64,000 bases of DNA. It comes from Escherichia phage vB_EcoM_G2285. The stretch lies in sequence record MK327933.1, one strand, 5' to 3'. The notes below the pieces were generated by a model. The model did not search any database. It had not been told where the DNA came from and saw only the letters and a program-made list of their open reading frames with translations. Shown in pieces: positions 2,520 through 33,703 of the stretch. The position numbers and the translations under genes were made by a program. Position 1 is the stretch's first letter. Every line of letters begins with the position of its first letter.

Positions 2520-3620
2520 TTACGCTGTGAAGATTTTATCCCACATCGCAACAACTGCATCTCGATTATACTTCTTCCATACTGCTTCAGCACGTTTAAC
2601 TCGAGCTTCGTATGTGTCAGTGAATTCTAATACAGCTTTTGTGTAAAGCGCAACTACTTCTTTCTTAGGAGTAGAGGAATCAATTTCTACACGCACAGTA
2701 TCTGGGTCGTATTCGAATGTCGCATGAGGATAATCCTTAAAAACTAACTGGATTACAGGGACACCTTTAGAGATGGCTTCAATAGAACTATTCTCTACTG
2801 TACCTGTGTCAGGACACGTATTAATAAGTGCTTTAGCTGTTTTAAGACGTTCCATGATTTCACTGTGTGGAGCATCAATAATAACAGGATATTTAGCTGG
2901 TGGTGCCCATTTACTAGGACAATAACCAATACCATTTTCGCCTAGTGCTTTAATCGCTTCAAGAGCAACATCAGTACGACGCATTTTAGTGTCATAACGT
3001 TGTGCACTAATAATCAGATCAGTCGCCGGAAGAACTTCAGGTTTCTCATTCAAACAAATAACCGGATAATCTTCGGCTTCAAACAACGGATTTGCTCGCC
3101 AATAATCATAATCGATTTTGTCAGTCAGACCTGAAGTCATATAACAATATTTGCGTTCAAATTCACGGAAGGCTTTAGTAGGAGCATAACTCTTACCACC
3201 ATTCTTATGAATTTGAATAGTCTGGTCCCAAATTTGAACAATGCCGCGAGATACCGGTTCAAATGGTGTTGCCATAAAATTCTTATGAACTTTAGAGAGA
3301 CCTGCGTCTTTAATTGCCTGAACGGTTAGTTTAGTCGGTTCCATAGTAACAACAAAATCGTATTCATGGATGCCGGCTAGTTCAACAATCTTACGAGCCA
3401 TAGTATAACTCATACCTAGACTGAATTTAGTCAGATGACCAACAGGATGGTGTGTAACTTTCCAGTCACCAAACGTGTCATTATCAAAGCCGATATAATC
3501 AATATCAGCACCGATGGACACAAGATATTTCAACACATTTAAATGTACTGCTTCAAGACCACCTTGTACACGGTCAGGATTAAATGGGACCGCACGAGAT
3601 GGGATAAACATAACTTTCAT
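2520..3620 (-). CDS. GT-B (GT4-like) glycosyltransferase, candidate DNA sugar transferase
   Basis: 366 aa; C-terminal E-x7-E-type motif TVENSSIEAISKGVPVI typical of GT4 donor-binding domain; N-terminal MKVMFIP..GG..A Rossmann start. Confidence 0.65.
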   Translation of the reverse strand: MKVMFIPSRAVPFNPDRVQGGLEAVHLNVLKYLVSIGADIDYIGFDNDTFGDWKVTHHPVGHLTKFSLGMSYTMARKIVELAGIHEYDFVVTMEPTKLTVQAIKDAGLSKVHKNFMATPFEPVSRGIVQIWDQTIQIHKNGGKSYAPTKAFREFERKYCYMTSGLTDKIDYDYWRANPLFEAEDYPVICLNEKPEVLPATDLIISAQRYDTKMRRTDVALEAIKALGENGIGYCPSKWAPPAKYPVIIDAPHSEIMERLKTAKALINTCPDTGTVENSSIEAISKGVPVIQLVFKDYPHATFEYDPDTVRVEIDSSTPKKEVVALYTKAVLEFTDTYEARVKRAEAVWKKYNRDAVVAMWDKIFTA

Positions 3621-22047: not shown

Positions 22048-23212
22048 CGAAATCTTCCATTTCGTCAAGGTCGTTTTCTATATCTGCTGCAGACGGAGCA
22101 TCAGAAGTTTTAACCGGAACTTTAGTTGTTGCTTTGCAATTAATAAGGTCATTAACAGCGTCATCAACTTCTTTAATAGAAGAGATAGCACCTAGTTTAT
22201 ATTTAGTTTCAATTGCATCTCGGAAAGGTTTGTGTTTAAACAACGGCCCCCAGAATTCTACACAATCAGTAGCTTTAGCACGCCATGATTTTTCTTCACG
22301 AATCATTTCGCCTGTTTCTTCGTCAAGGAATTCACGAGCATACCACCCGGCTTTAGGCTTAACTACAAAACCAATTTCAGTTGCCATTTCTAACAAGCCG
22401 CTGAATGGGTCGATACCACCATCGAAATTAACCGTGATCGGGAAAGTAGATTTTTCTTTAACAGTACGAGATTTTTCTGCTTTCAACGTGAAGTCATAAC
22501 CGGTCAATTCTGTACCTTCTTTAACCTGACGTTTAGAGATAAAGAATACAGTGTTAGCAGAGTAAAGAATACCTGTACCACCACCCATAATCTCTTTAGG
22601 ATATAGTCCGCCGATTTCCATTGCGGTATGGTTAATTGCAACACACGGAATATCTTTAATAGTCAGATACGGGGTCACAATGCGGAACAGAGATTTAAGT
22701 GCCTTAGCACGAGACATATCACCTACAACTTTCTCGTTCAACGCATCTTCGGTTTCTTTCTTAGATGCAGTATTACCGATTGAATCGATAAAGATAATAA
22801 CTTTATCACCCCGTTCAATCGCGTCAAGCTGATTAGTCATATCAACTTTAAGTTGTTCGACGGATTGAATCGGAGTATGAACTACACGGTCTAAATCAAC
22901 ACCCATTGAACGAAAATAAGATTCTGAAGCACCGAATTCTGAGTCATAAAACAAACAGATTGCATCTTTATATTTCTTCATATATGCTGCAACCATAGTT
23001 AGTCCAAACAGTGTTTTAAAATGTTTAGAAGGTGCAGCAAAAATAGTTAAGCCTGATTGCAACCCGGCATTCAGTGCACCACCTAATGCAATATTCAACA
23101 TCGGAATACGAGTAGGGACTTCATCACGATTATTAAACAGCTTAGACTTAGTCAAGTCTGCAGTCATTTTAGAAGTAGAAGCTTTAATCAGACGAGATTT
23201 TAAATCAGACAT
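22040..23212 (-). CDS. uvsX: UvsX recombinase (RecA-like)
   Basis: 390 aa; MSDLKSRLIKASTSK.., GPSKHFKT Walker A; colinear with recalled T4 UvsX. Confidence 0.95.
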   Translation of the reverse strand: MSDLKSRLIKASTSKMTADLTKSKLFNNRDEVPTRIPMLNIALGGALNAGLQSGLTIFAAPSKHFKTLFGLTMVAAYMKKYKDAICLFYDSEFGASESYFRSMGVDLDRVVHTPIQSVEQLKVDMTNQLDAIERGDKVIIFIDSIGNTASKKETEDALNEKVVGDMSRAKALKSLFRIVTPYLTIKDIPCVAINHTAMEIGGLYPKEIMGGGTGILYSANTVFFISKRQVKEGTELTGYDFTLKAEKSRTVKEKSTFPITVNFDGGIDPFSGLLEMATEIGFVVKPKAGWYAREFLDEETGEMIREEKSWRAKATDCVEFWGPLFKHKPFRDAIETKYKLGAISSIKEVDDAVNDLINCKATTKVPVKTSDAPSAADIENDLDEMEDFDE

Positions 23213-23310
23213 TGTATTTTTCCATAGGCATCATTATATTTTACTCATGTTTAAAAGATAAGATGATTATATACTAAGGGTTATACAGCATTTAAAACTT
23301 TAAATGGCTC

Positions 23311-23859
23311 TTAACGAGCCCATTTGATGATTTCTGTAATCAAATCATTACGTTCGCTTGCATTAAATCCTATAACTTTGTTAGCACCATCATGATTAAG
23401 TAATTGATACGTTTGGATTTCGTTATGAATTGCAAACTCTTCAAAATATGAAATGACTGTATTAAAACCGAATGAAGACAAAGTAATAAGGTCGTCTTCA
23501 AAACTTTCAGTCATTTCGTTACGTGTTAAAATAATTGTGAACACATCATGGTTTTGGCAAAGACGAACATAATCCTGTTCATAAACGTCAAGAACCGAGT
23601 CCGCATCTTGTCGAATACGTCCATAAACCCAGTTACTAATATATCCACGGTCTAACAGATAAATCTTAGTAGGGTCTAAATAATTCAACATCGTTTCGAA
23701 ACAACCAACTTCATTTCGAGACTTAACATCGAAACGTCCATCAACTGTTCGTTTAGGGAAATCAATCTTTACATATCTTTCACTAATTTCCATTATGTCA
23801 TTAATGAAAGTTGTTTTACCAGCATTATCCGGGCCATCTACTAAAATAATTTTAGCCAT
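23311..23859 (-). CDS. P-loop nucleotide kinase-like protein (dNMP/thymidylate-kinase fold)
   Basis: 182 aa; Walker A VDGPDNAGKTT, downstream LLDRGY (DRY-like) motif. Confidence 0.5.
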   Translation of the reverse strand: MAKIILVDGPDNAGKTTFINDIMEISERYVKIDFPKRTVDGRFDVKSRNEVGCFETMLNYLDPTKIYLLDRGYISNWVYGRIRQDADSVLDVYEQDYVRLCQNHDVFTIILTRNEMTESFEDDLITLSSFGFNTVISYFEEFAIHNEIQTYQLLNHDGANKVIGFNASERNDLITEIIKWAR

Positions 23860-23860
23860 T

Positions 23861-24760
23861 TTATTCCTCGATTACGACATCTTCATATTTAGGTATATTA
23901 TACGGTGAAGAAATTAAAGCATTAAAGTAGATGAACTCACCAAGACCTGGATGGAATACTTCTTCAGGATTTTCGAAATATTGAATCTTCGGACGTCCTT
24001 TAAGAATTTGATAGTACTCAGTTTTAGTTGGTTTAAAAATTCGAATCAGCGCTTCTTCAGGATACTTATTTCTGTCGAAGCTATTATTTGGATCGGTTAT
24101 ATAAAGCGGTTGACCTAATTGAATTGCACATTCAACCACTTGTTCAAAACGATAGCATGGGTCACTAATTCGAAACGGATGAAAAATACCATCTAGATGA
24201 ATAGGAGCCAAATCACCTACAAGACGCTGCATGATGGAAGGACGTATAACTTTCTGCGTTACGATAATCTTATTACCATCGGCACCAGCGTTAACCAGCA
24301 CTTCTTTTTGACGTTCATTCAACACAGTAGTTTGAAGTGAACGATTAACCGACAACATGTCGGTTTTTAAGAATTCGTCAATATAAAAACGTGGTTTATT
24401 AGGGTCTGCCGTGATATTGAAATTGAATTCCACATCAAAAGCGCCGTCATATCCAGTGATATCTGTGATTAGAAAATCACAATCATAATAAGCAATTAAT
24501 GAATCAACCACAAATTCATTTTCAGACCAGAAATATTTACGAGTGTTATACGCGTTATCTTTATACCATAATGGAACAAACTTAAATTCCGGGAAAAGAC
24601 GTTCGCATTCTTTAATATCAGATGCATTACGTGGATATGTAATCACATCACCTGGATTAGCACGGTGCAAATGAAGTTGGAAGTTGCCATCCTTAAGGAT
24701 AGCATACTGTCCAGTTTCATAAGACCGCATACTCAAGATTGGTACGCGGAAAATAGCCAT
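23861..24760 (-). CDS. hypothetical protein in the position of T4 beta-glucosyltransferase
   Basis: 299 aa; tightly coupled to flanking genes; no recognised motif. Confidence 0.5.
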   Translation of the reverse strand: MAIFRVPILSMRSYETGQYAILKDGNFQLHLHRANPGDVITYPRNASDIKECERLFPEFKFVPLWYKDNAYNTRKYFWSENEFVVDSLIAYYDCDFLITDITGYDGAFDVEFNFNITADPNKPRFYIDEFLKTDMLSVNRSLQTTVLNERQKEVLVNAGADGNKIIVTQKVIRPSIMQRLVGDLAPIHLDGIFHPFRISDPCYRFEQVVECAIQLGQPLYITDPNNSFDRNKYPEEALIRIFKPTKTEYYQILKGRPKIQYFENPEEVFHPGLGEFIYFNALISSPYNIPKYEDVVIEE

Positions 24761-25476
24761 TAGTCAAGGAATCCTTTAACATAATCAAAATCACGTTCAA
24801 ACACATGGGCACTTACCATGGTATGAGTATAATCACCAACTTCTACACCACATTCGTTAGCGATATAATGAAGTAATTTTCCTTGGAGATAAAAATCCAA
24901 CTGCATAACAACAGCACAGTTCTGGGAACGCATATGACAGTGGGTATAAAGCTTACCATCACGAATATAATAAGTCACTGAGTCAGTACATGGATATTCA
25001 AGCGTTTCGTCCGAATCAAGCAAAGCCTGATCAGAACTTTCTAGAATTTGGAACACAACTCTTCGAGAGTTAGGCTTCTCTTTAAGTTCTTTTAGAAGAG
25101 CTGGTAATTGGGCCGCAATGCGAGGACCATAGAAAGTGTTGAAGTTTGCCGGCAAAACATCTGATTTTGGTTTAGAAATAAATTTAGCGACATTAGGATA
25201 TGCCTTAAACGCTTCTTCTGCGTTGGTACCACCAGAAATCATAAACTTCCAGAAGTCTTCGGCATATTCATAAGAGATGCGGTTAATACGTGGGTCGGTC
25301 ATTTTGAATGATGATGGAGTGTCAACAACTACTGTCATAGACCCAATTTCATTACAACGTCCAATACGAGAATCAGTTACGAATTCCGGGTTTTCTAAAA
25401 TTTCACGATTGACTGCTTTAAAGGCGGTTTGAAAATCTGCGGCTTTGATATATTTCATTGTGTTATGTTTTCCCAT
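24760..25476 (-). CDS. thymidylate-synthase-family pyrimidine hydroxymethylase (gp42-like, divergent)
   Basis: 238 aa; NSRR, YPCTDS (catalytic Cys), HMRSQN blocks of TS/dCMP-hydroxymethylase fold; N-terminal half unlike recalled T4 gp42. Confidence 0.6.
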   Translation of the reverse strand: MGKHNTMKYIKAADFQTAFKAVNREILENPEFVTDSRIGRCNEIGSMTVVVDTPSSFKMTDPRINRISYEYAEDFWKFMISGGTNAEEAFKAYPNVAKFISKPKSDVLPANFNTFYGPRIAAQLPALLKELKEKPNSRRVVFQILESSDQALLDSDETLEYPCTDSVTYYIRDGKLYTHCHMRSQNCAVVMQLDFYLQGKLLHYIANECGVEVGDYTHTMVSAHVFERDFDYVKGFLD

Positions 25477-25505
25477 GTTTACCTCAATACAATTTATTAT
25501 ATACT

Positions 25506-25530
25506 CAATTCATAAAGCTTATTTGAATTT
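25506..25530 (-). promoter_or_regulatory. middle-promoter-like element (MotA-box-like AAGCTTTA, 11 bp, -10 TATAAT)
   Basis: minus AAGCTTTA-TGAATTGAGTA-TATAAT then GAGGTAAACATGG. Confidence 0.4.
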
Positions 25531-25653
25531 CTTAGCGATGTTGATATAACGTAAAGCTTCAGCATCAATACTTCCAAGAACACTATGAAGAAATGCATCA
25601 GCGTAGTATTACAATTGAACAGGTTCTTTAATCACTTTAGCCGCTTTGGTTTT

Positions 25654-25677
25654 AAAAAGGCCCATCAGGGCCTTTTT
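25654..25677. terminator. bidirectional rho-independent terminator
   Basis: perfect palindrome AAAAAGGCCC-ATCA-GGGCCTTTTT, T-runs on both strands. Confidence 0.7.
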
Positions 25678-25754
25678 AAGAATTTGTTCGTTAGTGTTCA
25701 GTTTCGTAGTCAAAATCTCTTCATTAAGTTGGTGGTTAAAAGTTTTTCTAGAAA

Positions 25755-26915
25755 TCATTCCGGGTACCTCAAAGCGTCATCAGAGTTAGTTATATCAATA
25801 ATAGATATAGAGTTTTCTGCTAACCCGGTTTTAGATAATTGACGTTTATAATATCTTTCACAATATGTACACGTCGTCCCGCAGATTTCATTAGCACAAT
25901 CGAAATCTGGATGTCTGAACCACCTTTTTTCTAAAAAGCCATCTAACAAAGAGGTTTCAATATTTACTGTATGTGAAAACTCTGTCTCATTTTCAAGAGT
26001 GAAAATGGTCTCTAAAGGCTTCCACAGTTCTAACAAATTACCTTCAAACTTTTCAGAAGCATAAGCTTCAAGAACTTTCAAAATGTAGTCTGTGCTACCT
26101 GTACGTCCTGAAACTTTGAATTGAGTGATACCAATATCATTATAAAGTTTCAAATCTTGAGGACGAACAAAACGAGTTCTCAACCAGTTAAATGGATCTG
26201 TATCACGAGCTTTAATACAGTGCTGCATTGGATATCCATTTAAAGATTTGGCATCATCAGCTGTAACATCAGTACTATGGAAAATATAGCAAGAGTCACG
26301 ATAACTACAATGTGTTGTATACCCTTTACCAGCATTAGAACAGAACTCATTTACAAGAACTTCAAATATTATATTGTTCTTATTGCAAAACTCTGCTGCA
26401 CGCTTCAGGAAAGAAACTGAACGGTTCTTATGAATTCCACAGCAGACCTTTTTGATATTATATTGGTCATGCAAGTATTTGATTTGAGTTACAGCATCGA
26501 CATGTAGAATTGTTGAAACTTCAATCTCAATATCTTTATTGACTTCACGAACAATTTCCATAACAACAGGGTTAGCGATAGTAATACGCCATACGCCTAT
26601 TGACCAAAGATACTGAACATAATCCTGAATAGCTTTCTTCTTCCACTCAACTAGTTCTCTTTTTGAACCAGGATTTATCGTGTTGAGTGTATAGTTAAAG
26701 CAAATACCTAATTCGTTACAACGTTTAACGTAATCTTCTAACATCTTTTTGTCAACGTCAGGAAGCCTAAAATCAGGTCTGGCTGCTACAAAAGCCATTT
26801 CTCTTGTAGAGCCGTATACTTCGTTTATCAAGCTATTAGGATAAGTTTTATTGAGCTCTACGATTTTATCAAGAAGAGCTAAATCAAAATTCGTTCCGAT
26901 TTTAAAAGTATTCAT
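25755..26915 (-). CDS. Cys-rich enzyme of unknown function (weak peptidase-U32-like resemblance)
   Basis: 386 aa; C-terminal C-x4-C-x3-C-x2-C cluster plus VCCG, CSNAG, HCSYRDSC. Confidence 0.5.
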   Translation of the reverse strand: MNTFKIGTNFDLALLDKIVELNKTYPNSLINEVYGSTREMAFVAARPDFRLPDVDKKMLEDYVKRCNELGICFNYTLNTINPGSKRELVEWKKKAIQDYVQYLWSIGVWRITIANPVVMEIVREVNKDIEIEVSTILHVDAVTQIKYLHDQYNIKKVCCGIHKNRSVSFLKRAAEFCNKNNIIFEVLVNEFCSNAGKGYTTHCSYRDSCYIFHSTDVTADDAKSLNGYPMQHCIKARDTDPFNWLRTRFVRPQDLKLYNDIGITQFKVSGRTGSTDYILKVLEAYASEKFEGNLLELWKPLETIFTLENETEFSHTVNIETSLLDGFLEKRWFRHPDFDCANEICGTTCTYCERYYKRQLSKTGLAENSISIIDITNSDDALRYPE

Positions 26916-26972
26916 TTTTTTTGCATCTCACGTTAATTGACGCGATGGTTTTTGCAGGTCTTACTTAAATTA

Positions 26973-27374
26973 TTATAGATTCGGTTTATACGATTTAAAT
27001 GTTTCGAATTCGCCTTTATTCATAAGAGCTTTGAATTCGTCAGGACGCATAGCTTTGTCGTCGATAATCCAATCATATACTGGTTTATGTGTTAGCAAAT
27101 TATGGTACTTCAAACCAATGTTTTCCAAGTTCTGAATCAGACTTGGGAGAATGTCAATTGCTATACGACCAGGACCTACTGACTTCATACCGCGAGCAGT
27201 GTAAAGCGTTATGGTATGCCCTGCATCATACAGGGCATTAATGGCAGACACCATTTCGACGTCAGGTTTGAAGTTCACGTAATCACGATTGTTATTCCAC
27301 TCTGTTATACAATCATCGACATCAAAACAAAGATTAAGCATGTTTTCTACACGGTGCATTAGATTCGTTCCCAT
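26973..27374 (-). CDS. HAD-superfamily phosphatase
   Basis: 133 aa; motif I LCFDVDDCIT (DxDx[TV]) near N-terminus; alternative start 27359 overlaps upstream stop. Confidence 0.6.
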   Translation of the reverse strand: MGTNLMHRVENMLNLCFDVDDCITEWNNNRDYVNFKPDVEMVSAINALYDAGHTITLYTARGMKSVGPGRIAIDILPSLIQNLENIGLKYHNLLTHKPVYDWIIDDKAMRPDEFKALMNKGEFETFKSYKPNL

Positions 27375-29044
27375 TGATGAGTGATATCGCCACCGATTGG
27401 ACGATAGGAAACACCAGTTTCTTTATCAGTTAGTACCCATTTACCAGGATTTTTTGTAATCAGAGTAGCCGTTACAGGTTCTGCTACGTCATAACTAATA
27501 GAGCCGTCCTGAAGTACACGGCCCATATTACGTAATTGCTTAGTCAGAAGTTCCATACCTTTATAATATGCGGCTACCGCTTTAAGTGGATTATTCTTAA
27601 AATAACCACCTAATGCAATCCAGATAATTGCCACTGCCAAATGATGATACTCGTTAAATGAACTCATCTTTCCATATTTGTAAACTAATGGATTGATGTT
27701 AATAGTCACATTACAAGTTGTTTCATCAATAGTAAACTGGCCCCAGGTCGGATTAGCGTTGAATTCATCATAACCTGAAACAGCATAAAGCACTTTAGCT
27801 TCATCATACAATTTTGGCCCGTAAATCTTGGTTTCGCCAAAATATCCACGAGGGTCGATAAACTTGACTTCGCCGTTATCAGTAATCATAGTATTACTGA
27901 AGTTCGGGTCACCATGAATAACAGAGTACTGTCCCTGAGAACGGTTATGATAGCGAATAAGATGTTCTAAAGCTTGTTTCAGCATTGGCTTCAGACGTCC
28001 AATCTTAGTGTAGTTCACATGTGTGATTTTACCAAATGAATCAATCAATGGTTGAATGCTTTCACAACGATCAATAACTTTCGTATAGAATTCTTTAGTG
28101 AAATCACGACGAACAGTTTCAGGACTTACAAAATAAGTGTCTGTGCTGAATTTCAGTGCATCTAAAATTGCATCAACAATTTGTGGACGAGCAAGACTTG
28201 ATTTGGATTTAATATATTCAAATGCCGGCTTACCTTTAATGCGTTCCATTTCAAAGTTATTTTCATTAACAGAAACTAACTGAGGAACTGAATCTGATTT
28301 CACTTTAAGATACCATGAAATCTCATCTTTCTGAAGAGCTCGACCTTGTTCGGTTAATGCGAATTTAGTTACAGTTTCTTCACCAATTTCAACTGCATTA
28401 AAACTACGATTAAGTTCACGAACTTCATGGGCCTTTTCAAGTTTAGGCATATCACCAAGGTCGATGATATTCATAAGCTCTGATTTATTGAATGCGCCGC
28501 TGTAAAGGAATTCTACGAAATCACGTCCTTTGCAGTATTCATGAATTTCCTCATCAGTAGAACCCATGTAGAATTCCCAGTCTTTGAACTGATAAATTCC
28601 TACAACATTACCACCTGTTGAACCTACGTTAGTGATATTTTCACCGTCGAAATTATATCGACATTCGTCACCCTTAACATAGATTGCGTTAACATTCCAA
28701 GACCATGAACCAAAATCTGGAATAATATCACACCAGTTAACAATTACGTTATGGCCGTCTAAATCTTTGTGTAATTTAGCAAGAGCATAAGCAGAACCAT
28801 ACGCTTCATCAACTGTACGAATAGTCACATTGAACCCTTCTTGCTCACAATAAGCTCGAACAGTTTCAGCAAATTTTGAATGAACTACTACAATAATTTC
28901 ATCTGCGCCAAGGTCAGAATAAATTGTATACAAATTGCTCAGAATAGTGTCTTGTTTATAGTTAACAAGCACCTTGGGAATATGATGCGTTATTGGATAT
29001 AAACGAGTTGCCAGACCAGCACCAAGAATAACAGCTTTTTTCAT
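27359..29044 (-). CDS. bifunctional sugar-phosphate nucleotidyltransferase / APH-like kinase
   Basis: 561 aa; N-terminal ILGAGLATRL NTP-transferase motif; C-terminal VIHGDPNFSN..IDPRG kinase catalytic-loop-like motif. Confidence 0.6.
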   Translation of the reverse strand: MKKAVILGAGLATRLYPITHHIPKVLVNYKQDTILSNLYTIYSDLGADEIIVVVHSKFAETVRAYCEQEGFNVTIRTVDEAYGSAYALAKLHKDLDGHNVIVNWCDIIPDFGSWSWNVNAIYVKGDECRYNFDGENITNVGSTGGNVVGIYQFKDWEFYMGSTDEEIHEYCKGRDFVEFLYSGAFNKSELMNIIDLGDMPKLEKAHEVRELNRSFNAVEIGEETVTKFALTEQGRALQKDEISWYLKVKSDSVPQLVSVNENNFEMERIKGKPAFEYIKSKSSLARPQIVDAILDALKFSTDTYFVSPETVRRDFTKEFYTKVIDRCESIQPLIDSFGKITHVNYTKIGRLKPMLKQALEHLIRYHNRSQGQYSVIHGDPNFSNTMITDNGEVKFIDPRGYFGETKIYGPKLYDEAKVLYAVSGYDEFNANPTWGQFTIDETTCNVTININPLVYKYGKMSSFNEYHHLAVAIIWIALGGYFKNNPLKAVAAYYKGMELLTKQLRNMGRVLQDGSISYDVAEPVTATLITKNPGKWVLTDKETGVSYRPIGGDITHQWERI

Positions 29045-29085
29045 GTTGAAGTCCTCATTGGTAAGTAGGAGTATTGTACACTATT

Positions 29086-29229
29086 CTAGTTAAAGCATTC
29101 ATACTTTGCTTGTAGTCCAATCATAATCCATCCAATCACAAGTGTTGGAATCATTACCGGAGCCGTTAAGCTCCAGTAGATAGTCATGAAAAGCATCAAT
29201 AGTAAAAGTCCTATTGTTATTGCTTTCAT
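29086..29229 (-). CDS. 47 aa hydrophobic membrane peptide, absent from ORF track
   Basis: hand translation MKAITIGLLLLMLFMTIYWSLTAPVMIPTLVIGWIMIGLQAKYECFN; ATGA overlap with upstream stop. Confidence 0.4.
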   Translation of the reverse strand: MKAITIGLLLLMLFMTIYWSLTAPVMIPTLVIGWIMIGLQAKYECFN

Positions 29230-29861
29230 TGTTCGCCTCGTAACATGGCACCTAGTGCACCGCCTGGATGGAACTTAAGGAAGTCATTAGAGGTAAATCC
29301 ACGTTCAGACGAAAGGTTGATAGCAAACGTATCGATAAGCGCTAACAACAATGTAGTTGACATCGTCGGAGCTAAAGAGTTCTCGTCAACTTCTACCGCG
29401 ATACCGGTACAGAACGTATAATCAAAAAGAGCTTCGTATTCTTGTGGAATGTCTGGGTTACAATGCAACAGAATCTGTTTGACGTTCGGACGAATCATTT
29501 TAAGATGCTTAGCCACGCCTATCATTTCTTCAGTCTTACCAGAACGACTGATGTGAACTAATACATCATTAGGTGCAATAAATCCTGCATCACCGTGAGA
29601 ATAATGCCCAGTGTTCAAGTACATACTCGGGATACCGAGTGAAGCAAATGTCTCAGAAGCTTTAGTTGCGATATTAGCATTCTTACCAACACCTGTAATA
29701 ATTACTCGGCTTTCATAATTACTAAGTCCAGGGCGTCGAAGAGTTTCTAGAATAGCATTATAACGAGCAGGGTTTTGACTAATTACTTCGGCCATAGTGG
29801 CCAAAGAAGAAGCTTGTTTTATGATTGCGTCAATAGCGATAGTAATAGGAGTAGTTTTCAT
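29226..29861 (-). CDS. SIS-domain sugar-phosphate isomerase (arabinose-5-phosphate isomerase-like)
   Basis: 211 aa; ITGVGKNANIATK, HGDAGFI, ISRSGKTEE, APTMSTT, FHPGGALG match KdsD/GutQ SIS-domain blocks. Confidence 0.7.
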   Translation of the reverse strand: MKTTPITIAIDAIIKQASSLATMAEVISQNPARYNAILETLRRPGLSNYESRVIITGVGKNANIATKASETFASLGIPSMYLNTGHYSHGDAGFIAPNDVLVHISRSGKTEEMIGVAKHLKMIRPNVKQILLHCNPDIPQEYEALFDYTFCTGIAVEVDENSLAPTMSTTLLLALIDTFAINLSSERGFTSNDFLKFHPGGALGAMLRGEQ

Positions 29862-29901
29862 ATTTCTCTCATTTAATTAGTTTACCGTCCATGGCATTAT
29901 A

Positions 29902-30905
29902 TCAAAAATCGAACATATCGAACAGAGATGCTTTCTTCTCGTAATCGAGTTTCGCTGCTGATGTGAATCCTTCAAGTGGTTTAATAAATGTCTTCTCAAG
30001 GAGAACAGTGTAGTCCATCCAATGAAGTACATCGTCTTTAATTAAATCTGTGATTTCAGTACCAGAAGGCCATGCGATACATTTATCACCGAATGGGTTT
30101 CCTTCACGTAAAGGCAGAACATATACTTTTTCACCTTCTACAACTTGCGGTGCATCGATATTACCTTTGATAGCCCGGTTATACGTCAGAATTCCACGAA
30201 TATGGAACGGGCATTTAGGACCAGGGAATCCACCGACGTCATATTTAGCAATGTTATTCGCAGAAGATACCGACGCGATGCTAATATAATTCAATTGACG
30301 GAATTCTTTTTCAAACTCTTTAAAATATTCTTGTAATGATTCTTCGCCTTCCTGAAGCATACGACGAATACATTCCTTAAGAGCTTTCTGTACTGCTTTA
30401 GGAGTCGAAGATTTCTGAGTCTCTAGACCCATGATTTTAAGCTTAGGTTCAGCGTATCTGGTTCCTTCCATATCCCACACGTTTAATGCATAACGTTTCT
30501 TACCAGTCCAGAATCCACCAATACCTTTAGAACCAAGCGGAGGACCAGCAATAGCTTCTCGGTCCATGAACATCAAATGTTGTTTATTGTTCATGTATTC
30601 ACACATTTCACGGAAACCTCTATCAATAGCTGGTTCCATACGTTCACGTGCAAACTTATCTAAGAAGTCTACCCAATGGTTGGTATCACGGAATTTAGAT
30701 TCACCAACCTTATCAATAATTTTATCTGCAGATACGTAAATGGAGTCTGTATCACCATAAAGAACGAAAGCTTCACCTTCTGTACCACAAACTTCATTCA
30801 GATATTCATTAACTTTACGTTCAATCCACTGTAAAGCCATTTGACCAAATGTTGTGATTGCAGTAGCATTACGCAAATCGTAATAACGGAACCAAACGTT
30901 ACCCA
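29902..30905 (-). CDS. 43: DNA polymerase gp43, cistron B exon 2 (palm/thumb, YGDTDS)
   Basis: translation from GNVWFRYYDLRNATAIT through YGDTDS to ..FDMFDF matches recalled RB69/T4 gp43 C-terminus; 5' boundary set at inferred splice site. Confidence 0.85.
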
Positions 30906-31137
30906 CATTATGTTCGACTGAGGTCGTTAATCTCAGCCCGGAATTATATCCAGCTGCATGTCGCCATGCAGAGCAGACTATATCATCATCTTTATAGATG
31001 CTATGCGCTTCCACCCACTTGGGCGTACTCCTTTCGGATAGTCGTTGCACGTTCCTCATAGAGGCTTCGCTCAGGATTGTCTACTAGAGATGTCCCCTGA
31101 ATTCACATAGTTTAAAGTGCGCCGAGTTATTTGGTTA
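30906..31137 (-). ncRNA. group I intron (td/nrdD-like, ORF-less, 232 nt) in gene 43
   Basis: interrupts motif B codons (..LYGAL | GNVWF..); core elements CTCTAGTAGACAATCC and GATATAGTCTGCTCTGCATGGCGACATGCAGC; starts TAA after exon U, ends ..CATAATG. Confidence 0.75.
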
Positions 31138-31306
31138 ACGCACCATACAGACTATTAATAAGCAATTTACGGTTAATCTGAGCCGTATTACCTGCTACTT
31201 CAGCCAATTCGCAGTTTTTAAGATGTTGTTCTAAATCAGCTTTGCTTAAGGACTTGAGATAAGAAATTTCATCTTGTGAAAAGTCTTGAGTGTATGTTAA
31301 ATTCAT
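31138..31306 (-). CDS. 43: DNA polymerase gp43, cistron B exon 1 (motif B)
   Basis: ATG overlapping HEG stop (TAATG); encodes MNLTYTQDF..NTAQINRKLLINSLYGA, the polymerase K-x3-NSxYG region. Confidence 0.7.
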
Positions 31307-32127
31307 TATATTTTATTCCTACAGTTATCAAAGTGCCAACGTTTCATACCAGATAATATACCTTCTTTACCACAGTGCGGACACGTTGCTTTAATCTCTT
31401 TAGCTTTAGCCCAGTATTCTTTCTTAGAGTCTGAAAGGGCCTTATTATGGGCTTCCGAATTGGTTTTGCCTAATCTTGTTTTAACTATATTAGGATTCTC
31501 TGAAATTCTTTGCTTCATCCTAGAAGACTGTTTAGAACGTTGTTCTTTCGACCAGCCATCAGATAAAACTTTCTTTTGTTCTTCAGTTTTGGTTGTACCG
31601 AAGAGATGGGATTTATTTTTAGAATAGTATTCTTTGAGACCTATAGATTGTTTTAACGAAGTTTCAGCAGAATGCTTTGTTCCTATTTTATTTTTACTTG
31701 CTACAGCCCAATTGGCTGCTGCTATGGCTTTATACTTTTCAGGATTTTTGGCTATAGTGATTTTAATAGAATCTGAAACCTTTTTAGCAATCTCTTGGGA
31801 CTTCATAGGATTTGGTAGATTTAAAGAATTTACATAATCCCAACCGCCTTTACCACCAGGATTAAGATTATATGTATCATTTCTTTTTACAAAATCTTTA
31901 TCTACAATTTTAGCTTCAAGGGCATAAGCTTCATCTTCATTATCGAATACTTCCAAAATGGTCTTTTGGAGATTTTCTATACCGTATTTTTCAACGGCTG
32001 CTTTAACAACAGGTCCAGAACCGCGGTAAATATCGTTTTGATTAGACTCATCACACTTATGAACACCTACATAAATTTTACCATTAACGACATTAGTAAT
32101 TTGGTAAACAGTATAAACAGTTTTCAT
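31306..32127 (-). CDS. GIY-YIG homing endonuclease inserted within gene 43
   Basis: VYQITNVVNGKIYVGV GIY-YIG motif; C-terminal CPHCG..MKRWHFDNC zinc finger; start set at ATG with SD GGAGG. Confidence 0.75.
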   Translation of the reverse strand: MKTVYTVYQITNVVNGKIYVGVHKCDESNQNDIYRGSGPVVKAAVEKYGIENLQKTILEVFDNEDEAYALEAKIVDKDFVKRNDTYNLNPGGKGGWDYVNSLNLPNPMKSQEIAKKVSDSIKITIAKNPEKYKAIAAANWAVASKNKIGTKHSAETSLKQSIGLKEYYSKNKSHLFGTTKTEEQKKVLSDGWSKEQRSKQSSRMKQRISENPNIVKTRLGKTNSEAHNKALSDSKKEYWAKAKEIKATCPHCGKEGILSGMKRWHFDNCRNKI

Positions 32128-32153
32128 AATATCCTCCATTAGTTGATAAGACT

Positions 32154-32183
32154 ATAATACCACATCCTTGTGGTATTGTAAAC
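32154..32183 (-). promoter_or_regulatory. early-type promoter for the intragenic endonuclease
   Basis: minus GTTTAC-N18-TATTAT then AGTCTTATCAACTAATGGAGGATATTATG. Confidence 0.45.
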
Positions 32184-33703
32184 TATTTTGAAGCCAAAAT
32201 CTCTTTAATTATTTCAGCATTTCGCTGTGCAGCCAACATGTAGCGCTTATGTTCTTTACGCTGCAAGAATACCTTAGTGATTTCTGTTGGAATCACACCA
32301 TCACGGTCTTTATAATACATCATGCCGTTAGGAGAGCAACTGTACACATCTGAAGGACGTTCGGCGATTGCGTTAATATACTCATGCAGTGGAGCTACTT
32401 TAAACGTTCCTGCTATTGTTTCCGGGCTAATATTCACTTGGCGAATAATACTTGGATACAGAGATGTAAGGTCGAAACTCATTACATATTTGTATCGATT
32501 TGGAATAGGTTCCTTAACAAAAGCGCCAGGATAAGGTTGAACCGGGTGAGAACGACCTTGTGGAATCACCTTGTTCTGCTCTTTAAGGCTATTAAAAATA
32601 ATAGCATCCCATGTTTTAATTGGGCTAAACACAGATTGAATCTGTATCTTAGCATAATAACCCATGTCCAAGCTCAAGTTGATGAACTGACGCTTAGCAT
32701 CAATTTGCAATACACGATACACGTCGATAATGTTATAAGAAATATATCGTTGGTGATTGCTTTCACGAAGCTTAGAAATAGGGCCGTCATATTTCAGTTT
32801 ACCAACGTTCAATTCAAATTCTGAAATGTAATCCAGAGAATATGACGGTTGATTGGTAAAAGAGAATTTTTTGTAAAGGTCAATGTAATCAAGAACAGAG
32901 ATACCGAACAATGTAATGATTTCACGAGAACCATACATGTTTTCGATAACTTTAACACGAGTTTTACGATGTGGTGACAACCGTTTTGCTGTGGATTCGC
33001 CAAAAATATTCTTGATTCGGTTATACACATATGGAATATCAAATGACTCAACGTTCCATCCAGTCAAAATGACAGGAGTTTTCTGTTGCCAGAAGTTGAG
33101 ATATTCCATCAACAATTCTTTTTCGTTATCGAACGGCATATAAATGATTTTATCGATAATTTCAGATGGAACTTCATCACCGCCTTGTTCTTGAAGCTTA
33201 GCAGCGATTTCAATAGACCATTCTTCTACATTACCATACGGAGAATTCAATAGATCAAATACATAGAACCTGTCGTCAATTGAGTCATAATGGGTGATAG
33301 CATCAATCGGATGTTTTGCTTGTGACGGCTCAGGGAACCCATCCGGAGATGTTACTTCGATGTCGAAGTTAGCCACACGAATTTTTGTATGGTCGTATTT
33401 GATTTCATAGTTATAAGTGTCAGACAAATACGCCAATTTGAAATCGTCCATGCCAAGTGCTTCAAGTCCGATATCTTCCATGCGTTTAATCCATTGGGAG
33501 GCATCACGCATATTAGCGAACAGCTTACGAGTACACGGCTTACCGTAGATATCGAAATATTTCGTAGCCTGACTTTCTGGACAATGAGCAAACAGTGATG
33601 GTTTATATTCTACTTCACGAGTACGTTCACGGCCATTAGAATCGATGTAACGTTCAAAAATTGAATCACCAATCTGTTCAACCGTTAAGTAAAATTCTTT
33701 CAT
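32183..33703 (-). CDS. 43: DNA polymerase gp43, cistron A (N-terminal and 3'-5' exonuclease domains, motif A)
   Basis: 506 aa; MKEFYLTVEQIGDSIFERYID..FDIEV..YNIIDV..DLTSLYPSII matches recalled RB69 gp43 N-terminal half; ends at in-frame stop. Confidence 0.9.
   Translation of the reverse strand: MKEFYLTVEQIGDSIFERYIDSNGRERTREVEYKPSLFAHCPESQATKYFDIYGKPCTRKLFANMRDASQWIKRMEDIGLEALGMDDFKLAYLSDTYNYEIKYDHTKIRVANFDIEVTSPDGFPEPSQAKHPIDAITHYDSIDDRFYVFDLLNSPYGNVEEWSIEIAAKLQEQGGDEVPSEIIDKIIYMPFDNEKELLMEYLNFWQQKTPVILTGWNVESFDIPYVYNRIKNIFGESTAKRLSPHRKTRVKVIENMYGSREIITLFGISVLDYIDLYKKFSFTNQPSYSLDYISEFELNVGKLKYDGPISKLRESNHQRYISYNIIDVYRVLQIDAKRQFINLSLDMGYYAKIQIQSVFSPIKTWDAIIFNSLKEQNKVIPQGRSHPVQPYPGAFVKEPIPNRYKYVMSFDLTSLYPSIIRQVNISPETIAGTFKVAPLHEYINAIAERPSDVYSCSPNGMMYYKDRDGVIPTEITKVFLQRKEHKRYMLAAQRNAEIIKEILASK

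Follow-up and report, generated by a model that had tools for sequence, protein, structure and literature searches.

The window analysed here, a stretch of 64,000 nucleotides from Escherichia phage vB_EcoM_G2285 (MK327933.1), carries on its minus strand a single open reading frame (ORF) of 561 codons (27359..29044 in the ORF listing), in which a nucleotidyltransferase is fused to a kinase. With good confidence, this ORF (hereafter NT-kinase) is the RB69-type orthologue of AfhE, a bifunctional enzyme for steps 2 and 4 of a four-step route to uridine diphosphate (UDP)-D-arabinofuranose (UDP-Araf). The route would be a de novo synthesis from the pentose-phosphate pathway with the logic of ADP-heptose synthesis rather than a salvage of the AmgK/MurU type. 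The direct evidence consists of the folds of the two domains, a conserved active site in each, the orthology to RB69 gp52:53, the conserved neighbourhood and the domain fusions. The NT-kinase is a real two-domain phage enzyme, and both it and its pathway are already in the published literature. The gene and its domains are as follows.

27359..29044, minus strand: bifunctional NT-kinase, 561 aa, RB69 ORF53_52c / gp52:53 orthologue and HY126 AfhE homologue (ORF, RB69 identity, Pfam, AlphaFold 2 (AF2) model)
28424..29044, minus strand: N-terminal domain, residues 1 to ~207, sugar-1-phosphate nucleotidyltransferase, predicted UDP-D-arabinofuranose pyrophosphorylase (G8/G10/R14, K24, D106, D195)
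27362..28423, minus strand: C-terminal domain, residues 208-561, choline-kinase/APH-like kinase, predicted D-arabinose-5-phosphate 1-kinase (K227, E241, H377-G-D379-x4-N384, D397-P-R-G)

Identity of the gene

The window belongs to an RB69-like T4-type phage (Mosigvirus), because it contains gp41, UvsX, a split gp43, gp45 and gp44/62 and because a 6.6-kb region is 98% identical to many Mosigvirus genomes, for example vB_EcoM_G53. The gene has a GAGGA ribosome-binding site 8 nt 5' of its ATG and ends with a TAA stop at 27359-27361. Its product is identical to RB69 ORF053c plus ORF052c at 556 of 561 positions (99.1%; five substitutions) once one extra base is removed from NC_004928. The RB69 RefSeq record splits the gene through a one-base sequencing error, and the gene is intact in the window. 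The region was resequenced in RB69 by Thomas et al. 2018 (PMC6024577), who found a single ORF of 561 residues, named it ORF53_52c, expressed it and suggested that it serves, along with the GutQ-like ORF055c, in UDP-arabinose biosynthesis. The window protein is thus orthologous to RB69 gp52:53, the literature's counterpart of AfhE. The equation of gp52:53 with AfhE of Escherichia phage HY126 was made by Lee et al. 2026 in NAR (PMC13326640). The two-domain architecture of the window protein is shared with HY126 AfhE, RB69 gp52:53 and gp82 of Acinetobacter phage DLP3.

Domain folds and active sites

The earlier note on this DNA had read the protein as a single polypeptide with a sugar-1-phosphate nucleotidyltransferase at the N-terminus and an APH/choline-kinase-like domain at the C-terminus, and Pfam, the structural models and Foldseek all bore this out. 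The motifs are located at residues 6-15 (ILGAGLATRL), 377-384 (HGDPNFSN) and 396-400 (IDPRG). The domain search that the note had suggested succeeded for one half and fell short for the other. Pfam NTP_transferase (PF00483) matched residues 3-99 with 39.1 bits, above its curated cutoff of 21.2. The kinase families matched residues ~344-409 below their curated cutoffs (APH, 14.4 bits against 23.2; Fructosamin_kin, 17.1 against 22.4; EcKL, 16.2 against 22; also RIO1). By sequence alone, the kinase half would be a hint rather than a result.

Structure prediction was performed with an alignment of 57 homologues reaching down to ~30% identity. The full-length AF2 model had a predicted local distance difference test (pLDDT) score of 93.8 and a predicted template modelling (pTM) score of 0.91. 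Residues 208-561 modelled alone reached a pLDDT of 94.5, and their top Foldseek match was the aminoglycoside phosphotransferase APH(2'')-IIa (3ham, E 9.8e-8). The note had held that the absence of a kinase fold from this half would speak against its reading; the predicted model does have a bilobal kinase fold. There were 143 matches at E<=1e-3, and nearly all of the 50 listed were aminoglycoside, macrolide or peptide-antibiotic phosphotransferases or choline/ethanolamine kinases. The N-terminal half adopts a Rossmann-like GT-A-type fold, and its best profile match was HddC (1.3e-13). Therefore, both folds, that of NTP_transferase and that of choline-kinase/APH proteins, are present in one polypeptide. 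In PMC13326640, gp52:53 was likewise modelled as an N-terminal pyrophosphorylase and a C-terminal kinase, and its top matches (4y7t, 1jyk and 3ham) are the same as those obtained here. No solved AfhE-like full-length structure was found in the PDB by sequence, profile or fold. Because the kinase half stays below the Pfam cutoffs and its family profile reaches only RIO2 (E 0.04) among PDB sequences, it is a distinct and divergent family within the APH/choline-kinase fold.

The active sites were compared among 67 bacterial and archaeal homologues with 24-35% overall identity. In the first half, G10, R14, K24, W104 and D106 are 99-100% conserved. In the second half, the same holds for R213, N216, K227, E241, K322, R326, N344, H377-G-D379, N384, I396-D-P-R-G400, K417 and D426. 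The nucleotidyltransferase signature is complete, with G8/G10/R14/K24 and D106 invariant and position 195 always D or E; the acidic residues would be metal ligands. The catalytic elements of the kinase are also invariant, namely H377-G-D379-PNFS-N384, D397, K227 on the strand 224-229 and E241 on the helix 232-247. Both active sites, invariant across phage, bacterial and archaeal homologues, are thus under selection. Four basic residues of the kinase half (K322, R326, R399 and K417) are invariant as well and would fit an anionic phosphosugar substrate.

Gene context and proposed pathway

The NT-kinase gene is grouped with genes for an arabinose-5-phosphate isomerase, an AfhF-type HAD phosphatase, a 5-hydroxy-dCMP synthase and DNA arabinosyltransferases, and the genes for HY126 AfhE, RB69 gp52:53 and DLP3 gp82 share these neighbours. 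PMC13390438 describes the same Mosigvirus cluster. The neighbouring features in the window are listed below.

29226..29861, minus strand: SIS-domain arabinose-5-phosphate isomerase, 211 aa, single-domain and KdsD/GutQ-like, RB69 gp55 orthologue (Pfam SIS 3e-10; TIGR00393 kpsF 3.8e-32; KdsD 2e-30; 97% identity to RB69 gp55)
29086..29229, minus strand: small hydrophobic ORF of 47 aa that starts in an ATGA overlapping the stop codon of the SIS gene (97% identity to RB69 ORF054c, of which RB69 annotates the last 36 aa)
26973..27359, minus strand: mini-HAD phosphatase, 128 aa, RB69 gp51 / AfhF homologue (TIGR01689 EcbF-BcbF capsule phosphatase 1.9e-13; DxD, TAR and distal Asp; 98% identity to RB69 gp51)
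25755..26915, minus strand: Peptidase_U32-family protein, RB69 gp50 (Pfam PF01136 7e-11; 99% identity to RB69 gp50)
24760..25476, minus strand: thymidylate-synthase-like 5-hydroxy-dCMP synthase, RB69 gp48 orthologue (Pfam Thymidylat_synt 2e-15; 99% identity to RB69 gp48)
23861..24760, minus strand: putative first DNA arabinosyltransferase, intact 299-aa ORF, RB69 gp46:47 orthologue (99-100% identity to RB69 p046 and p047, no Pfam match; role from PMC13326640)
23311..23859, minus strand: thymidylate-kinase-like nucleotide kinase, RB69 gp45 orthologue (PHROG 761 thymidylate kinase 3.8e-45; 99% identity to RB69 gp45)
2520..3620, minus strand: putative second arabinosyltransferase, RB69 ORF003c / gp3 orthologue (tblastn, 366/366 aa aligned, 99.2% identity; role from PMC6024577 and PMC13326640)

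The NT-kinase gene's TAA stop and the ATG of the mini-HAD gene share a base (TAATG), an arrangement that indicates translational coupling. The distant gp3 orthologue is a putative consumer of the UDP-arabinose produced by the cluster.

The chemistry of RB69-type phages is known from the literature. The DNA of RB69 bears mono- or di-arabinosylated 5-hydroxycytosine, not hydroxymethylcytosine; the sugar is D-arabinose, and 5-hydroxy-dCMP synthase activity has been shown for gp48 (Lee et al. 2026, PMC13326640). In the same paper, UDP-Araf was an active donor in vitro for transferases of Acinetobacter phage DLP3. As summarised there, He et al. 2026 (Nat Chem Biol) reported AfhE as both a kinase for D-arabinose-5-phosphate and a pyrophosphorylase for UDP-D-arabinose, and AfhF, the gp51 homologue, as a Mg-dependent phosphatase acting on arabinose-1,5-bisphosphate. 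Citing this in vitro work, its text gives the route as ribulose-5-phosphate, arabinose-5-phosphate, arabinose-1,5-bisphosphate, arabinose-1-phosphate and UDP-Araf.

By analogy, the following route is proposed for the window. At first, the upstream SIS isomerase would convert the ribulose-5-phosphate of the pentose-phosphate pathway into D-arabinose-5-phosphate. Second, the C-terminal choline-kinase/APH-like domain would phosphorylate C1 with ATP to give arabinofuranose-1,5-bisphosphate. Third, the downstream coupled mini-HAD phosphatase would strip the 5-phosphate to leave arabinose-1-phosphate. Fourth, the N-terminal nucleotidyltransferase would join arabinose-1-phosphate with UTP to form UDP-Araf. 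Afterwards, phage GT-B transferases would use UDP-Araf to arabinosylate 5-hydroxycytosine in the phage DNA, and protection from restriction would result. The substrates, the order of the second and third steps and the UTP specificity are carried over from the literature on the homologue and are predicted for the window protein.

The role in NDP-sugar synthesis that the earlier note had proposed is upheld by the RB69 orthology and the literature pathway, and arabinose, one of the sugars that it had suggested, was a good guess in view of the D-arabinose in RB69-type DNA (PMC13326640). On the other hand, its idea that the phage starts from a free sugar, and not from a sugar phosphate of central metabolism, is not supported. 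An isomerase and a phosphatase are needed for a route from ribulose-5-phosphate through the 1,5-bisphosphate, and neither is needed for salvage of a free sugar. Therefore, the gene context opposes free-sugar activation. A de novo route from ribulose-5-phosphate of the ADP-heptose type is preferred because the isomerase and the coupled HAD flank the gene, the HAD travels with the fusion (63 of the 80 cellular loci described below), all four activities occur in one HAD-SIS-nucleotidyltransferase-kinase chain, and the published pathway (PMC13326640) takes the same course. In MurNAc salvage, AmgK and MurU are two distinct proteins, their substrate is a free recycled sugar, and no isomerase or phosphatase is required, whereas the phage route draws its substrate, arabinose-5-phosphate in the literature, from the pentose-phosphate pathway and has a phosphatase step built in. 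By its context, the NT-kinase does not belong to the AmgK/MurU type.

Several points weigh against the assignment as an AfhE-type enzyme with this substrate and product. The activity of AfhE is known second-hand through the summary in PMC13326640, and the link of the window protein to AfhE runs through RB69 gp52:53 and not through a direct alignment. The failure of the kinase half at the Pfam cutoffs counts on the same side. The nucleotide specificity is not readable from the sequence, and the closest transferases use CTP, dTTP, UTP or GTP. Furthermore, none of the solved structural neighbours of the kinase half has a phosphorylated substrate (they use choline, aminoglycosides, glucosamine and maltose). 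Finally, Table 1 of PMC13326640 keeps an older order of steps, in which gp51 'dephosphorylates Araf5p to Ara' and the C-terminal domain 'Phosphorylates Ara to Araf1p'.

The last two points agree with a reversed order, in which the HAD would first free D-arabinose from arabinose-5-phosphate, the kinase would be a true anomeric kinase as are AmgK, NahK and glucosamine kinase, and the transferase would complete the synthesis. We regard this order as unlikely. The text of PMC13326640, with the in vitro work on HY126 AfhE and AfhF that it cites, places the bisphosphate before arabinose-1-phosphate, and freed arabinose would be lost to the arabinose metabolism of the host. The invariant basic residues of the kinase half would also suit a phosphosugar. 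In addition, gp81, the homologous phosphatase of DLP3, has GmhB, a heptose-1,7-bisphosphate phosphatase, as its closest AFDB Foldseek match (PMC13326640).

The ambiguity in nucleotide specificity leaves room for another product, such as a CDP-, GDP- or dTDP-pentose or a ribose or xylulose derivative, with arabinose activated by something else. The nearest transferase structures use CTP (LicC), dTTP (RmlA), GTP (HddC) and UTP (MurU) and score similarly. Some cellular homologues adjoin a ribulose-phosphate-3-epimerase-like gene and a cupin isomerase instead of an SIS gene, and substrates probably vary in the family. Nevertheless, another sugar or nucleotide is improbable for the window protein. 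Its partner isomerase is KdsD/KpsF-like, no further nucleotidyltransferase was found in the cluster by the ORF list and Pfam, the sugar on RB69-type DNA is D-arabinose, and UDP-Araf is accepted as a donor in vitro (PMC13326640).

The presence of LicC and choline kinases among the top structural matches also brings up a LicCA-like fusion of choline/ethanolamine kinase and cytidylyltransferase, which would make CDP-choline or CDP-ethanolamine for surface decoration. The LicA and LicC proteins and their LicCA fusions act on an amino-alcohol rather than a pentose phosphate and have no isomerase or phosphatase partner, and their identity to the NT-kinase is only 11-21%. The NT-kinase has a pentose-phosphate isomerase and a phosphatase as its conserved partners, and in some organisms both are fused to it. 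Its cluster sits among DNA-modification genes, and the RB69 homologue has been assigned to arabinose (PMC13326640). A choline-activating enzyme of this type is very improbable and was rejected on gene context and domain fusions.

Comparison with other sugar-activating systems

The AfhE-type route follows the same logic as the ADP- and GDP-heptose pathways (GmhA; HldE or HddA; GmhB; HldE or HddC), namely isomerisation of a ketose-phosphate, C1 phosphorylation to a bisphosphate, distal dephosphorylation and nucleotidylation. Also, kinase and transferase are fused in HldE as in the window protein. However, the heptose pathway uses a heptose and the phage route a pentose, and the domain order in the window protein is transferase then kinase. 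The HAD phosphatase of the phage route is a minimal form of ~125 aa. The kinase of the window protein is choline-kinase/APH-like, whereas that of HldE is ribokinase-like and HddA is a GHMP kinase. Because its kinase fold differs from both heptose kinases, the likeness is functional and not one of homology. The NT-kinase is not a member of the HldE family, since it has no PfkB or CTP_transf_like match in Pfam and the folds differ.

Fkp of Bacteroides and AFKP80 of Leishmania are bifunctional fucose/arabinose kinase-pyrophosphorylases, and AFKP80 makes GDP-D-arabinopyranose. Like the window protein, they combine a kinase with an NDP-sugar pyrophosphorylase. Unlike it, they have a GHMP kinase, act on free sugars in a true salvage and yield a GDP-pyranose instead of a UDP-furanose.

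Distribution of the fusion and its cassette

The NT-kinase was found by tblastn in 373 phage records, of which 176 are from Escherichia, 57 from Acinetobacter, 25 from Klebsiella and 17 from Vibrio phages, with others including Synechococcus phages. The kinase half alone was searched in full against 1.84 billion representative proteins, and 451 clusters were obtained at E<=1e-10. The fusion is the normal state and the dominant architecture of this kinase family, because in most listed matches the kinase starts at residue ~200-250 of a protein of 480-600 aa. Among the 150 clusters listed, ~20 are short kinases of ~270-390 aa that look stand-alone (some maybe fragments) and ~15 are four-domain forms. 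The earlier note had called the fusion unusual. That view is not tenable with 373 phage records and at least 80 bacterial and archaeal species genomes, and the fusion was described for RB69 as early as 2018 (PMC6024577).

The order isomerase, NT-kinase, phosphatase also occurs in Acinetobacter phage AM101, Dhakavirus VR5, Kanagawavirus KLB31 and Synechococcus phage S-SRM01. For cellular genomes, one genome per GTDB species was scanned, and 80 loci with full-length NT-kinase homologues were obtained from bacteria and archaea. A profile search found a mini-HAD gene within 5 kb (<=5 kb) in 63 of them and directly downstream in 41. The profile was built from eight aligned sequences, in which the DxD, TAR and distal Asp motifs are invariant, and four of the positive loci had contributed sequences to it. 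A single-sequence phmmer search had detected the mini-HAD at only two of the 80 loci, a count that reflects its low sensitivity.

Of the 80 loci, 41 have a KdsD-like SIS gene. At eight others, an Rpe-like epimerase and a cupin of the mannose-6-phosphate-isomerase type flank the NT-kinase and mini-HAD, with no SIS isomerase; this pairing suggests a different pentose phosphate substrate. These eight loci (L025, L028, L048, L049, L051, L053, L057 and L081) are mostly from Sutterellaceae (Sutterella and Dakarella), and those outside the family are from Oxalobacter, a Eubacteriales metagenome-assembled genome (MAG) and a Gastranaerophilales MAG. Variants of ~788 aa were also seen (P0106, P0107 and P0110), of which at least P0107 has a cupin fused at its C-terminus.

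Proteins of 890-955 aa (P0084, P0091 and P0093) carry HAD, SIS, NTP_transferase and kinase domains in this order in one chain. P0084 (L001, 6001-8781) lies on contig JACCDH010973257.1, which looks like a giant virus in a eukaryotic assembly because the neighbouring genes encode MutS-HNH, RNA polymerase Rpb2, a protein kinase and Autophagy_act_C. P0091 comes from the transcriptome of the slime mould Ceratiomyxa fruticulosa.

In Synechococcus phage S-SRM01 (L004, 4411-6823), the triad of SIS, NT-kinase and mini-HAD is surrounded by genes for nucleotide-sugar epimerases and for no fewer than five glycosyl- or fucosyltransferases. No ThyA-like gene was found in the 11.5-kb view around it. Because of these neighbours and the lack of a ThyA-like gene in that view, the NDP-pentose of this phage may serve a non-DNA glycan.

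We tentatively propose that the NT-kinase and mini-HAD, together with either an SIS isomerase or the Rpe-like epimerase and cupin, form a general and largely unrecognised cassette that converts pentose-5-phosphates to NDP-pentofuranoses. It is spread over Sutterellaceae, Trichodesmium, Prochlorococcus, Helicobacter and Clostridia, over DPANN and Thermoplasmata archaea, and over cyanophages. If this proposal is true, glycans of UDP-D-arabinofuranose or related donors would be far commoner than the actinobacterial decaprenyl-phosphate-arabinose route suggests. The breadth of the cassette in cellular genomes and the four-domain fusions are the addition made here, and He et al. 2026 or Mahler et al. 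2025 (Cell Host Microbe) may already cover both.

Significance and annotation

The NT-kinase would be the committed activating step for arabinosylation of phage DNA. Many restriction enzymes are blocked by this modification, which also influences how sensitive the phage is to type IV restriction and to further defence systems. It is also relevant to phage therapy, for which Mosigvirus phages are common candidates. With the biology already published, the practical value lies in annotation. Most of the 373 phage records name the gene 'hypothetical', 'GlmU' or 'mannose-1-phosphate guanyltransferase', and PHROG 4098, which contains the NT-kinase, is labelled 'unknown function'. The mini-HAD is misnamed as well, as 'phosphoheptose isomerase' in RefSeq RB69, VR5 and PHROG 1238 and in other records as 'polynucleotide kinase' or '3' phosphatase'. 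In NCBIfam, it matches only EcbF/BcbF, a family of capsule biosynthesis phosphatases, and this hints at a connection to the pentose-phosphate chemistry of capsules.

The U32 gene and neighbouring observations

The U32 gene of the window (25755-26915; listed together with L090, 4983-6394) was found in 221 phage records, all with matches at least 80% identical to the window protein, and the listed hosts are all Enterobacterales or Shewanella. These hosts are facultative anaerobes. Acinetobacter is absent from the ten best-represented genera for U32, though 57 Acinetobacter phage records carry the NT-kinase. Across genera in which identity of the NT-kinase is down to 50-73%, that of the U32 protein stays at 81% or more. 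The gene that follows U32 in Klebsiella phage KLB31 codes for a true type II chorismate mutase (38.5 bits with CM_2, whose cutoff is 27), and prephenate is the product of this enzyme. The U32 proteins UbiU/V, RlhA and TrhP are implicated in hydroxylation that depends on prephenate and not on O2, with C5 of RNA pyrimidines among the sites (PMC10990095). For the phage 5-hydroxy-dCMP synthase, in contrast, O2 is the oxygen source. The U32 gene may provide an anaerobic route to 5-hydroxycytosine that complements the O2-dependent ThyA-like synthase. PMC13326640 gives RB69 gp50 no more than the name 'sugar or heterocycle reductase', and a link of the phage U32 gene to anaerobic 5-hydroxycytosine was not found in the literature searched.

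Between the U32 and ThyA-like genes lies a homologue of RB69 ORF049c (25519-25758, minus strand; 79 aa in RB69). It has an in-frame TAA at codon 50, which is Glu in RB69, and is either a pseudogene or a strain difference. A GC-rich hairpin of 14 bp is located within it (25650-25681). The equivalence of ORF049c to the chorismate mutase in the KLB31 slot was considered and found unsupported, with no Pfam match and only a doubtful alignment at 26% identity.

Scans of positions 23000-30200 gave 23 sigma-70 promoter-like sites against 27.9 expected and four terminator-like sites against 3.7 expected, and both were uninformative on operon structure. The 47-aa ORF between the isomerase and NT-kinase genes (29086-29229, minus strand) is strongly hydrophobic (MKAITIGLLLLMLFMTIYW...) and would be a membrane peptide within a sugar-nucleotide operon. 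RB69 has it as ORF054c, and Klebsiella phage KLB31 has an equivalent under the annotation 'transmembrane'. The gp43 DNA polymerase gene of the window is split on the minus strand into ORFs for a 506-aa N-terminal and a 385-aa C-terminal part with a 277-aa ORF between them (29902-31059, 31306-32139 and 32183-33703), unlike the uninterrupted gp43 of RB69. The N-terminus of the 277-aa product (YxxxxxxNGKIYVG) looks like that of a GIY-YIG homing endonuclease.

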